Below are positions 47,243 through 52,767 of a stretch of 64,000 bases of DNA, in pieces. Position 1 is the stretch's first letter; each line of letters begins with the position of its first letter. A program made the translations under genes and the position numbers. Source of the stretch: Myxococcota bacterium (GTDB lineage Bacteria; Myxococcota_A; Polyangia; Polyangiales; Sandaracinaceae); contig JAYZQJ010000033.1 in the NCBI GenBank assembly GCA_036149055.1, forward strand, positions 32,001 to 96,000, in the 5' to 3' direction. A model generated the notes under the pieces. The model was not told the DNA's origin and made no database searches. It worked only from the letters and a program-made list of their open reading frames with translations.

Positions 47243-47662
47243 TCAGCGCCGCTGCGCCTCGAAGAGACGGTAGGCGAGCATGCCGAGCGCCATGGTGCCG
47301 ACGAAGACGGCCGCCTCCGCGCCGAATGAGGCCAGCGACGCGATGCCCGGGCCCGGGCAGAAGCCGCCGAGGCCCCAGCCGATCCCGAACAGCGCGCTGC
47401 CGCCGAGGAGCGCCGGCGTGAGGTCCTTGCGGGTGGGCACCTCGAAGCGACCTCCGAAGACGGGGGTGCCCCGCTTCAGGATGAGGCGGAAGAGCACGAA
47501 GTGGACGCCGATCGCGCCGACCATGACGAACGCGAGGCTGGGATCCCACTGGCCGAAGAAGTCGAGGAACCCGACGACCTTGGACGGCTGGGTCATGCCC
47601 GCGATGGCGAGGCCGACGGCGAAGATCAGACCGGCGACGAACGCGGCGAGGGGCTTCTTCAC
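47243..47662 (-). CDS. YeeE/YedE-family sulfur-compound transporter subunit (PmpA/DUF6691-like)
   Basis: GMTQPSKVVGFLDFFGQWDPSLAFVM...LFGIGWGLGGFCPGP. Confidence 0.9.
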   Translation of the reverse strand: MKKPLAAFVAGLIFAVGLAIAGMTQPSKVVGFLDFFGQWDPSLAFVMVGAIGVHFVLFRLILKRGTPVFGGRFEVPTRKDLTPALLGGSALFGIGWGLGGFCPGPGIASLASFGAEAAVFVGTMALGMLAYRLFEAQRR

Positions 47663-48105
47663 GACACGCCTCCGAGCAGCCGCACCGCGAGCACGGTCAG
47701 GGCGCCGGTCGCGATGAAGGTCACGGTGGCCACGATCGAGCGGCGGGAGAAGCGGCTGATGCCGCAGACCCCGTGGCCGCTGGTGCACCCGCTGCCGAGC
47801 CGCACACCGAAGCCGACGACGAGGCCGGCGACGGCGATGGTGAGCAGCGACCGGTCGTAGGTGACGGCGAAGAGCTGGGGCTGCAGCGCGAACATCACCG
47901 CGCCGCCCACCACCAGGCCGCCGACGAAGGCGGCCCGCCAGCCGAGCTCCTGCGCGTCGGCGCGGTCGGCCGGCCGGGGGAGGAGCAGGCCGGAGAAGAT
48001 GCCGCTGATGCCGGCGATGCGGCCGTTGAAGAGGAGGAGCAGCGACGCGCTGATCCCGATGAGGACGCCTCCGAGCGTGGAGGCGAGGGGGGTGAAGTGT
48101 TCCAT
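47659..48105 (-). CDS. YeeE/YedE-family sulfur-compound transporter subunit (PmpB-like)
   Basis: GGVLIG...NGRIAGISGI...RLGSGCTSGHGVCGISRFSRRSIVAT. Confidence 0.92.
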   Translation of the reverse strand: MEHFTPLASTLGGVLIGISASLLLLFNGRIAGISGIFSGLLLPRPADRADAQELGWRAAFVGGLVVGGAVMFALQPQLFAVTYDRSLLTIAVAGLVVGFGVRLGSGCTSGHGVCGISRFSRRSIVATVTFIATGALTVLAVRLLGGVS

Positions 48106-48310
48106 GAGGGTGGCTCCGAGAACGGCGAACGGGCCGGGTCTTTGCTGATCTCTCGAGTCGGGATGCGCTCGACGCAACCCGTGGTCACCACACCACCAGG
48201 AAGCGTACCAACGTCGGCGCGCACCGCCCACGCGAGCCTCTGCAACGCGGCGAAACGAGCGGTGCAACGGCGAGATACGGATCGCCCGGCCGACGCCCCA
48301 CGGCGAGGGC

Positions 48311-48326
48311 TGGCGCGGTTCTCGCT
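48311..48326 (+). promoter_or_regulatory. Candidate sigma54 promoter of the rhodanese-CA gene
   Basis: TGGCGCGGTTCTCGCT gives GG-N10-GC. A TGCAACG direct repeat lies upstream at 48241 and 48263. Confidence 0.45.
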
Positions 48327-48340
48327 GACCGCGGTCGGCC

Positions 48341-50889: not shown

Positions 50890-50950
50890 CCCCGTTCCAG
50901 GGAGCGTTCCACCCCGTTGCGGCGCGCACGTCGGGGGCGCGCGCGAGGCG

Positions 50951-50966
50951 CGGCACGCGGCGTGCT
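50951..50966 (+). promoter_or_regulatory. Candidate sigma54 promoter of sulP
   Basis: CGGCACGCGGCGTGCT has a GGCAC core and GG-N10-GC spacing. Confidence 0.45.
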
Positions 50967-50979
50967 CTGGAGGACGGTC

Positions 50980-52767
50980 ATGTCGACTCGCTTCACCCGC
51001 TGGATCCCCGCCCTCTCCTGGCTGCGCGACTACGAGCTCCGCCGCGACCTCCCGGGGGACCTCTCCGCCGGGCTCACGGTGGCGGTGATGCTGATCCCGC
51101 AGGGCATGGCCTACGCGATGCTGGCCGGCCTGCCGCCGGTGGTGGGGCTCTACGCGTCGGTGGTCCCGCTGCTGGTCTACGCGTTCCTCGGCACGAGCCG
51201 GCAGCTCGCGGTCGGCCCGGTCGCGATGGTCTCGCTCCTGGTGGCGACCGGCGTCGGCGCGATCGCGGAGCTGGGCTCGGCCGCGTACGTGGCCCTCGCG
51301 GTGGTGCTCGCCGGCATGGTCGGCGTCATCCAGCTCGCGATGGGTCTGCTCCGGCTGGGCAAGCTCGTCACCCTGCTCAGCCACCCGGTGATCAGCGGCT
51401 TCACCTCGGCGGCCGCGATCATCATCGGGCTCAGCCAGCTGAAGCACCTGCTGGGCGCGCCCATCCCCCGCAGCGCGCGCCTCCACGAGCTGCTGGCGAG
51501 CGCCGCGCAGGCCCTGCCGGAGACGAGCCTCGTCACCCTCGGCATCGGCGCGGCGTCGATCGCGATCCTGCTCGGCCTCAAGCGATGGGCGCCGCGGTTC
51601 CCGGGCGCGCTGACGGTGGTCGGGCTCGGCACGCTGGCGACCTGGGGCCTCGGCCTGCACGAGGCGGGGGTCGCGATCGTCGGCGAGGTGCCCGCCGGGC
51701 TCCCGCGTCCCGGGCTGCCGTCCTTCGACCTCGAGCAGATCTCCGCGCTCCTGCCGACCGCGCTGGTGATCTCGCTGGTCGGCTTCATGGAGTCCATCAG
51801 CGTCGCCAAGGCCTTCGCCCGGAAGCACCGCTACGAGGTCGACGCGAGCCAGGAGCTCACCGCGCTGGGCCTCGCGAACGTGGCCGGCACCCTCTTCGGC
51901 GCCTACCCGGTGACGGGCGGCTTCAGCCGCACCGCGGTCAACGGGCAGGCGGGCGCGCGCACCGGGCTGGCGAGCGCGATCACCGCGGTGGTCATCGGCG
52001 TCGCCCTGCTCTTCTTCACGCCGCTCTTCCACTTCCTGCCGAACGCGGTGCTCGCGGCGATCGTGATGACGGCGGTGTTCGGGCTCGTCGACCTGAAGGA
52101 GGCCCGGCACCTCTGGCACGTGAAGCGCACCGACGCGGGGCTGCTCGCGCTCACCTTCGCGGTCACGCTCTTCGTCGGCATCGAGGAGGGCATCGGCGCC
52201 GGCGTGCTCGGCTCGCTCGCGCTCTTCGTGCACCGGAGCACCCGCCCTCACCACGCCATCCTCGGGCGGCTCCCGGGCACCACGAGCTACCGGAACGTCA
52301 CCCGCTTCCCCGAGGCCGAGCGTGTGCCCGGGGTCACGATCTGGCGCTTCGACGCGAGCTTCTACTTCGCCAACGCGGACTACTTCCGCGACCAGGTCGA
52401 CCGCCTGCTGCTCGGCGGCGGCGCGCGCGCGCTGGTGCTCGACGCGAGCGGCATCAACGACCTCGACGCCAGCGCGGTCACGACCCTCGAGGAGGTGCAC
52501 GCGCGCCTCGACGCGGCCGGCGTGCAGCTCTTCGTGGCCCACGCCAAGGGCCCGGTGCGCGACGTCCTGGAGCGCGGCGGCTTCACCGCGCGCCTCGGGG
52601 CGGACCGCTTCTACCTGGATCTGCACGAGGCGGTGACGGCGGCGGCCGCCGCGCCTCAGCCGAGCACGCGATCGATCTCCTTGAGCAGCTCGTCGACGCG
52701 CCAGGGCTTCTTCAAGAACACGGTGTGCGCGGAGTCGGCGCCGGCCTCCAGCGTCATGTCGGAGTAG
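50980..52767 (+). CDS. sulP: SulP/SLC26 anion (sulfate/bicarbonate) permease with STAS domain
   Basis: GDLSAGLTVAVMLIPQGMAYA...GTSRQLAVGP...TGGFSRTAVN, STAS domain FYFAN...LDASGINDLDAS. GGAGG RBS before ATG 50980. Confidence 0.93.
   Translation: MSTRFTRWIPALSWLRDYELRRDLPGDLSAGLTVAVMLIPQGMAYAMLAGLPPVVGLYASVVPLLVYAFLGTSRQLAVGPVAMVSLLVATGVGAIAELGSAAYVALAVVLAGMVGVIQLAMGLLRLGKLVTLLSHPVISGFTSAAAIIIGLSQLKHLLGAPIPRSARLHELLASAAQALPETSLVTLGIGAASIAILLGLKRWAPRFPGALTVVGLGTLATWGLGLHEAGVAIVGEVPAGLPRPGLPSFDLEQISALLPTALVISLVGFMESISVAKAFARKHRYEVDASQELTALGLANVAGTLFGAYPVTGGFSRTAVNGQAGARTGLASAITAVVIGVALLFFTPLFHFLPNAVLAAIVMTAVFGLVDLKEARHLWHVKRTDAGLLALTFAVTLFVGIEEGIGAGVLGSLALFVHRSTRPHHAILGRLPGTTSYRNVTRFPEAERVPGVTIWRFDASFYFANADYFRDQVDRLLLGGGARALVLDASGINDLDASAVTTLEEVHARLDAAGVQLFVAHAKGPVRDVLERGGFTARLGADRFYLDLHEAVTAAAAAPQPSTRSISLSSSSTRQGFFKNTVCAESAPASSVMSE

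Follow-up and report, generated by a model that had tools for sequence, protein, structure and literature searches.

The closest described relatives of the locus reported here are the gene clusters that combine sulfide:quinone oxidoreductase (SQR), a persulfide dioxygenase (PDO) and rhodanese with the transporter genes yedE1-yedE2, such as those of Cupriavidus pinatubonensis, Agrobacterium blh and Acinetobacter yedE1-yedE2-pdo2. Rhodanese domains are common in SQR-PDO clusters (PMC10812762, PMC9163753), and YedE1E2 is an importer of zero-valent sulfur that forms glutathione persulfide and that 177 of 212 genomes encode along with pdo (PMC10812762). Here we describe a locus of five genes at 47243..52767 of a 64,000-nucleotide stretch (hereafter the window; positions 32001-96000 of contig JAYZQJ010000033.1, C33) of a Myxococcota genome (GCA_036149055.1, G000; 96% complete). 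It encodes a split YedE transporter, a rhodanese fused to a domain of predicted zeta-class carbonic anhydrase (CA) fold, an anion-porin-like protein and a SulP transporter, and probably represents the envelope half of a PDO sulfur-detoxification cluster of a known kind.

The notable part of this variant cluster is a zeta-fold family not described before, together with its exported form that is linked to sulfur genes. Neither the rhodanese-anhydrase fusion nor this cluster was found described in literature titles and the beginnings of abstracts, in a search of mostly open-access coverage and no supplements. Zeta-CAs are tabulated for diatoms only in one review (PMC7215798), and zeta genes are counted among prokaryotic toolkit genes in another (PMC10880623); the mere existence of zeta-CAs in bacteria is thus no novelty.

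A rhodanese fused to a domain of predicted zeta-CA fold

The fusion open reading frame (ORF) at 48341..49711 (+) encodes 456 amino acids (aa). Its first 14 codons (48341..48382, +) were read by eye, following lipobox rules, as a lipoprotein signal peptide ending in LVA-C14, and a hydrophobic stretch followed by Cys is common to the N-termini of most relatives of the group termed A below; the protein is thus predicted to be an exported lipoprotein. The rhodanese domain (48494..48739, +; residues 52-133) has the features of a catalytic single-domain rhodanese, namely a PF00581 match (E 2.4e-13) and the active-site loop CRSGRRS with Cys101. Its nearest solved structure is BpPRF, a PDO-rhodanese fusion (E 2.9e-20), and it is 48% identical to the PDO-rhodanese of G000 itself.

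The remainder of the protein (48821..49708, +; residues 161-456) matched no family in Pfam, none in NCBIfam above cut-off and no PDB entry in single-sequence and profile searches. When its structure model (mean confidence, pLDDT, 91.7) was compared with known structures using Foldseek, the top five matches were all repeats of CDCA1, with weak E-values of 0.012-0.068. In a wide structural search, 3uk8_A (CDCA1) was found at Z 11.5 with a root-mean-square deviation (rmsd) of 3.5 over 181 aligned residues and a sequence identity of 18%, and the next chain reached Z 3.7. The beta-CA structures 1ddz (Z 3.3) and 8thm (Z 3.0) lay in the background range, and scans of the fusion protein with PF00484 (beta-CA) and PF18484 (CDCA) gave no match. 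A preliminary description of the locus had labelled the protein a rhodanese-CA; the anhydrase part of that label stands at the level of the predicted fold, which points to the zeta class rather than the beta class.

Residues C190, D192, R194, H247 and C301 are invariant across 120 aligned homologues and near-invariant for the family, and as judged from the alignment they may be the metal ligands and an Asp/Arg dyad. The motifs Cys-Val-Asp-Gly-Arg, His and Cys-Gly of the domain correspond to Cys473/Val474/Asp475, His525 and Cys535/Gly536 of CDCA1, in which Cys473, His525, Cys535 and Asp475 are ligand or site residues (PMC8217695). The interval between H247 and C301 is 54 residues as against 10 in CDCA1, owing to an insertion of ca. 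44 residues of predicted helices, and H303 stands where CDCA1 has Phe537. We consider it very probable that the domain holds a metal-hydroxide site of the anhydrase type.

The family is large: a profile search gave at least 1,585 clusters at 50% identity, the best 150 of which were listed. Matches to the domain occurred in 26 of 61 genomes of relatives and in 20 of 301 genomes of a phylum sample, and rhodanese was the sole partner family among 47 family proteins scanned with Pfam. A scan of metagenomes, from which the best 80 of 173 matches were retained with a bias toward close relatives, contributed to a pooled set of 129 non-duplicate loci. The 128 loci in which the domain covered 200 aa or more formed 100 clusters at 90% identity, in which the copy in the window is represented by a 99% identical one (L130). 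Groups were drawn from quick IQ-TREE and FastTree trees of the anhydrase domain. Clade B comprises 58 clusters (support 96 in FastTree and 100 in a smaller IQ-TREE quick tree), and its members that were read, taken as cytoplasmic forms, have neither a signal peptide nor Cys in the rhodanese loop. Four clusters of apparently stand-alone domains form a small separate group, and the remaining 38 clusters were termed group A; in the majority of these a lipoprotein signal is present and the loop has Cys or Asp. No alignment column discriminates group A from clade B. One group A row and one clade B row derive from, or duplicate, the unpublished genome G023, and no conclusion was built on either.

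Several members deserve mention in their own right. Three proteins of 1039-1888 aa (P0121, P0122 and P0236) have a signal-like start, two to four zeta-fold repeats, a C-terminal hydrophobic stretch and no Pfam match; they look eukaryotic and could be unrecognised surface anhydrases. Three others (P0164, P0205 and P0247) are long, of low complexity and apparently eukaryotic, with a degenerate rhodanese, and are positioned inside the bacterial clade B. At five clade B loci (L034, L035, L038, L079 and L080), the gene adjoins genes for allantoicase, an amidohydrolase and a urate-oxidase N-terminal protein, and in three of these it adjoins a bestrophin gene. A lipoprotein copy without the first Cys motif (L082:8155-9090) adjoins genes for a TsdA-like cytochrome and a porin-like protein, and another very divergent copy lies within a complete sulfur cluster (L083).

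Linkage of the fusion gene to sulfur genes

Linkage was counted by tblastn with yedE1, yedE2, SulP, three PDO types, TauE and TsdA as queries. The PDO, TauE and TsdA queries were taken from three of the counted loci, which are also linked via the queries derived from the window. The loci include kin that are not independent, and no p-value is claimed. A sulfur gene lay in the fetched flanks of 25 of the 38 group A clusters, one of the 58 clade B clusters (TauE at a contig edge) and none of the four stand-alone clusters; where both flanks extended for at least 3 kb, the counts were 15/18 for group A and 0/28 for clade B. The neighbours of the 38 group A clusters were yedE (21), porin (18), PDO-type (16), SulP (12), TauE (6) and TsdA-like genes (3). 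Linked copies show many gene orders and occur in several subclades and two phyla; in Gemmatimonadota (L051 and L054), PDO-type or PDO-rhodanese genes, YeeE-family genes, SulP and the zeta-fold gene lie together, with the rhodanese attached C-terminally in L051. The arrangement of the locus recurs in G005, where it is divided by contig ends. All five genes were found together in 6 of the 38 clusters, so that comparison of neighbourhoods bears out the conserved linkage proposed in the preliminary description as linkage to sulfur genes, not as a fixed unit of five. It is scarcely credible that the genes are chance neighbours without shared function. Most family members, being of clade B, do have unrelated neighbours, and the complete set is infrequent, as a chance association would have it; this explanation is largely refuted by the contrast within the family and by the rearranged orders across two phyla.

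An out-of-sample set was assembled from 20 of the 22 matches in the phylum sample, the other two having already been included; three were repeats of loci already in the set. No sulfur gene accompanied eleven clade-B-like loci and one signal-bearing, rhodanese-free copy, and one short locus was uninformative. Of seven stand-alone copies, three (L258, L260 and L261) are divergent from a SulP gene whose product is 59% identical to that of the window; one of the three has a PDO (L258) and one a porin.

The PDO-type genes were labelled by PF00753, a best match to NF040641 below its cut-off and reading of the sequences. The preliminary description had noted the lack of a PDO, which holds inside the window only: a PDO-rhodanese gene and a divergent sigma-54 activator gene lie on the same contig, 21.7 kb downstream of SulP and beyond the end of the window (C33:106.4-108.9 kb), and as counted above 16 of the 38 related clusters have a PDO-type gene. 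G000 has a second PDO-rhodanese on C57. Its activator is 71% identical to that within the L031 cluster. In G001, a genome of the same genus, PDO, PDO-rhodanese, activator, DUF1641 and SQR-like genes lie ca. 20 kb downstream, and in G017 a single cluster without the lipoprotein holds the genes for the activator, PDO, SulP and porin together with the yedE pair. An SQR-like gene, labelled by our own reading (PF07992, adjoining DUF1641), forms part of the cluster in G030 and L157, and in G001 it lies next to the PDO genes. When it was used as a query, strong matches were found in G001, G005, G011, G014 and G030; in G000 this one partial query gave no match at E 1e-25, and none of 20 PF07992 matches, inspected at the N-terminus only, was SQR-like.

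The five genes lie where the preliminary description had placed them: all positions were verified in the sequence of the window, and the G+C content at third codon positions was 0.95-0.98 for the four genes read in frame. The closest named homologues carry the labels Sandaracinaceae and Myxococcales. yedE2 (47243..47662, -; 139 aa; PF20398/DUF6691, E 2.2e-42; PmpB-like half) and yedE1 (47659..48105, -; 148 aa; PF04143, E 2.9e-11; PmpA-like half) share a GTGA overlap, as the fusion and porin ORFs share an ATGA overlap. YedE2 has a single Cys102, in GFCPGP, and YedE1 has Cys107 and Cys114; we infer that Cys residues of YedE1 and YedE2 are equivalent to Cys104 and Cys101 of the Cupriavidus proteins. 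YedE1 weakly matched the YeeE of S. thermophila (6leo, E 0.0023) and reached 29 bits with the TsuA model NF052577, whose cut-off is 400. Two adjacent YeeE-family genes of ca. 140 aa with conserved Cys fit the split YedE1E2/PmpAB type, so the family assignment of the preliminary description is retained and the full-length YeeE/TsuA type is replaced by the split one. Thiosulfate uptake for sulfur assimilation, as by YeeE-YeeD (TsuAB), would agree with the YeeE family, the anion-porin fold, the SULTR-like SulP and a rhodanese close to BpPRF. We regard it as very improbable, because the transporter is of the split type and below the TsuA cut-off, no TusA/YeeD or cysteine-synthesis family was among the 113 + 41 neighbour proteins scanned, and PDO, TauE, TsdA-like and SQR-like genes recur among the neighbours. 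Thiocyanate handling, an earlier suggestion, found no support among the same proteins.

The porin ORF (49708..50889, +; 393 aa) encodes a predicted outer-membrane protein with a signal peptide, a C-terminal Phe and 39 Arg in the mature chain. Its match to PF07396 is weak (E 0.018), and 4 of 16 homologues carry a precomputed PF07396 annotation. Its model (pLDDT 93.6) has an OprP-like barrel fold, with OprP as the best structural match (Z 29.1, rmsd 3.1, 309 aligned residues); the match to OprO has an E-value of 2.5e-11. Close porin homologues were also found away from the sulfur cluster. A predicted porin-lipoprotein complex scored 0.00 and was used neither for nor against any reading. With the transporters, the locus has predicted outer-membrane, exported and inner-membrane parts, in agreement with the preliminary description.

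The SulP/SLC26 transporter with a STAS domain (50980..52767, +; PF00916, E 2.7e-115; PF01740; TIGR00815 above cut-off) has homologues at E <= 1e-100 in 10 of the 61 genomes. In eight of them (G000, G001, G002, G014, G017, G033, G039 and G059), the gene is less than 8 kb from yedE1; a contig end separates the two in G005, and they are ca. 30 kb apart in G036. In G002, G033, G039, G059 and G017, the yedE-SulP cluster has a PDO-type gene nearby and no anhydrase, the domain being matched nowhere in the first four genomes and elsewhere in G017. The preliminary description had seen the locus as a merger of a sulfur and a SulP-CA neighbourhood, and these clusters do not support that view. SulP occurs in 12 and TauE in 7 of the 100 clusters; as they never co-occur, they appear to be interchangeable exporters.

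The 235-bp divergent intergenic region (48106..48340) contains neither a sigma-70 consensus nor a match to a simple sigma-54 pattern, and a search of the locus for terminators and sigma-70 promoters found none. A gene for a CheB-CheR-PAS hybrid histidine kinase of 1583 aa (52656-57407, -) is convergent with SulP, overlaps its last 112 nt and is part of the DNA between the two halves of the sulfur cluster; G001 has a 1569-aa ORF at the equivalent position. Upstream of the locus, the ORFs at 46005-46934 (+) and 45070-45882 (+) have no Pfam or NCBIfam match, and a 3232-aa ORF at 32370-42068 (-) has TPR-like repeats as judged by eye. Elsewhere in G000, genes for a ferredoxin, an NrfD-like protein, a molybdopterin enzyme (best model PhsA, below cut-off), a chaperone and a second SulP lie together (C2:12100-19100, L240). 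In L133 and L135 the same genes stand next to the yedE-lipoprotein cluster, and the set may make up a third part of the sulfur island.

Candidate roles of the anhydrase-type domain, predicted to be exported

That the locus belongs to a sulfur-detoxification island is, in our judgement, highly probable. The following model takes genes, domains, conserved residues and linkage as observed, folds and export as predicted, and substrates and the direction of flow as we infer them. The porin would admit thiosulfate or polysulfide, Cys101 of the rhodanese would mobilise sulfane sulfur, and YedE1E2 would carry it inward, giving rise to glutathione persulfide. Oxidation of the latter to sulfite or thiosulfate would fall to the PDO-rhodanese whose gene lies 22 kb away, and SulP would export the oxyanion in the place of TauE. 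PDO activity produces acid, and the anhydrase domain may hydrate CO2, thereby buffering acid or supplying bicarbonate at the envelope, outside the cytoplasm. This model as a whole, in which sulfane sulfur is imported and oxidised and an exported CO2 hydratase plays an accessory part, is evenly poised between right and wrong.

Several points weigh against it. Group A is not a single supported clade and its members are not independent of one another, 3 of its 18 well-flanked copies have no sulfur neighbour, and no new rhodanese-lipoprotein copy was found in the phylum sample, so that the linkage of group A is an in-sample result. The PDO half lies 22 kb from the envelope genes, so that co-regulation of the two is at most putative. 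The structural match to CDCA1 is of moderate strength (18% identity, Foldseek E 0.012 and no match to PF18484). The anhydrase is optional, as seen from the five yedE-SulP clusters that do without it, and it accompanies SulP-type and TauE-type clusters alike, which fits a role on a sulfur substrate at least as well as a partnership in bicarbonate transport.

The other anhydrases of the genomes bear on the substrate. No match to beta-, alpha- or iota-CA or DabA models was found in G000; the PF00484 search was blank there and positive in 9 of 14 control genomes. A PF20393 search was likewise blank, searches with PF18599 (theta) and PF18484 (CDCA) were blank in G000 and in the control genomes too, and a simple motif search for gamma-CA, a weak test, gave no convincing ORF. 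A beta-CA was found in 48 of the 61 genomes. Among family relatives the count was 27 of 31, and three of the four without one carry close homologues of the fusion gene. No beta-CA was found in G000, G005, G011 and G014, all of which carry such homologues, and G001 has both the fusion locus and a beta-CA. This pattern is a weak hint that the zeta-fold domain hydrates CO2. A clean exchange of beta-CA for the zeta-fold family was considered and rejected, since most carriers of the family also have a beta-CA.

The same pattern could be read to mean that the right-hand operon (anhydrase, porin and SulP) is a bicarbonate-supply unit that lies near yedE by chance. Some SulPs are bicarbonate transporters (PMC10880623), and the stand-alone homologues divergent from the same SulP clade in three of seven loci would suit this explanation. 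The SulP of the locus, however, fails the BicA model NF050096 (150 vs 880 bits) as well as the DauA model, and its nearest solved structure is plant SULTR4;1 (E 6e-137), far nearer than 6ki1 (E 1.5e-33), which we take to be BicA. SulP orthologues also occur with yedE and PDO-type genes in clusters without any anhydrase, G001 has the locus in addition to a beta-CA, and L258 carries a PDO as well. A bicarbonate-supply unit is therefore improbable.

We lean slightly toward CO2 as the physiological substrate of the zeta-fold domain. CO2 hydration is favoured because the sulfur-unlinked and rhodanese-free forms do not differ in their active-site residues. We also counted in its favour the forms with two to four repeats and a signal peptide but no rhodanese, the clade B copies that adjoin genes for allantoin breakdown and bestrophin, and the lack of a beta-, alpha- or iota-CA or DabA match in G000.

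The main rival, which we judge unlikely, is that the domain hydrolyses carbonyl sulfide (COS) or CS2, and that the sulfide freed at the envelope is oxidised through SQR, rhodanese, YedE1E2 and PDO. It is the main rival because CDCA1 has a side activity of this kind, converting CS2 to H2S via COS (PMC8217695), and because the domain accompanies PDO clusters irrespective of their exporter, SulP or TauE. Fusions of the domain with rhodanese exist in both orders, and SQR-like genes occur in the G030 and L157 clusters and beside the PDO genes of G001. On the other hand, the SQR-like query gave no match in G000, at the threshold and with the single partial query described above, and no residue discriminates sulfur-linked from unlinked copies. 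CDCA1 is moreover slow on CS2: 10 µM enzyme in 45 min did about half of what 1 µM CS2 hydrolase did in 5 min, and the physiological meaning of this activity is described as open in the same source (PMC8217695).

CO2 hydration remains our preferred reading, and the family matters under either. Large as it is, it has been overlooked by the Pfam CDCA model, and it may provide the only non-gamma anhydrase of some genomes, which bears on anhydrase inventories. The sulfur-linked exported form and the Cys-less form make a matched pair of proteins for setting acid buffering against COS/CS2 hydrolysis in sulfide detoxification. A bolder and doubtful proposal is that this unannotated family extends CDCA to bacteria and apparently to other eukaryotes, with the exported rhodanese-fused form as a COS/CS2 hydrolase dedicated to supplying PDO clusters; if this were true, heterotrophic myxobacteria would be an unrecognised sink for COS.

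Comparison with known systems

The zeta-fold domain shares its predicted fold and the Cys/Asp/Arg/His/Cys motifs with CDCA1, the cadmium/zinc zeta-CA of Thalassiosira weissflogii (PF18484; PDB 3uk8 and 7bez). It differs in its length of ca. 290 as against 210 residues, in having no match at the sequence level, in its fusion to rhodanese and in its predicted lipidation. BpPRF of Burkholderia phytofirmans (PDB 5ve3), the nearest solved relative of the rhodanese domain, has a dioxygenase where the fusion protein has the zeta-fold domain; the order of the domains is reversed, and a signal peptide has been added. The porin model matches the anion porins OprP and OprO of Pseudomonas best and shares with them an Arg-rich mature chain, while its sequence is 12% identical to theirs and lies below the PF07396 cut-off.

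SulP-beta-CA fusions and pairs, of which we take Rv3273 to be an example, resemble the locus in that an anhydrase-type domain is encoded beside SulP. Here, the anhydrase is of zeta fold and predicted to be exported, and the SulP is SULTR-like and tracks yedE and PDO more than it tracks the anhydrase. In relation to sister loci, SulP takes the position of TauE; in relation to the known PDO clusters, the PDO half of G000 stands 22 kb apart and the one partial query gave no SQR-like gene there. The locus nevertheless has in common with those clusters the split YedE1E2, a rhodanese, a PDO-type gene, a sigma-54 activator and an anion exporter, and what it adds to them is an OprP-like porin and a lipoprotein, predicted to be exported, that joins rhodanese to the anhydrase-type domain.

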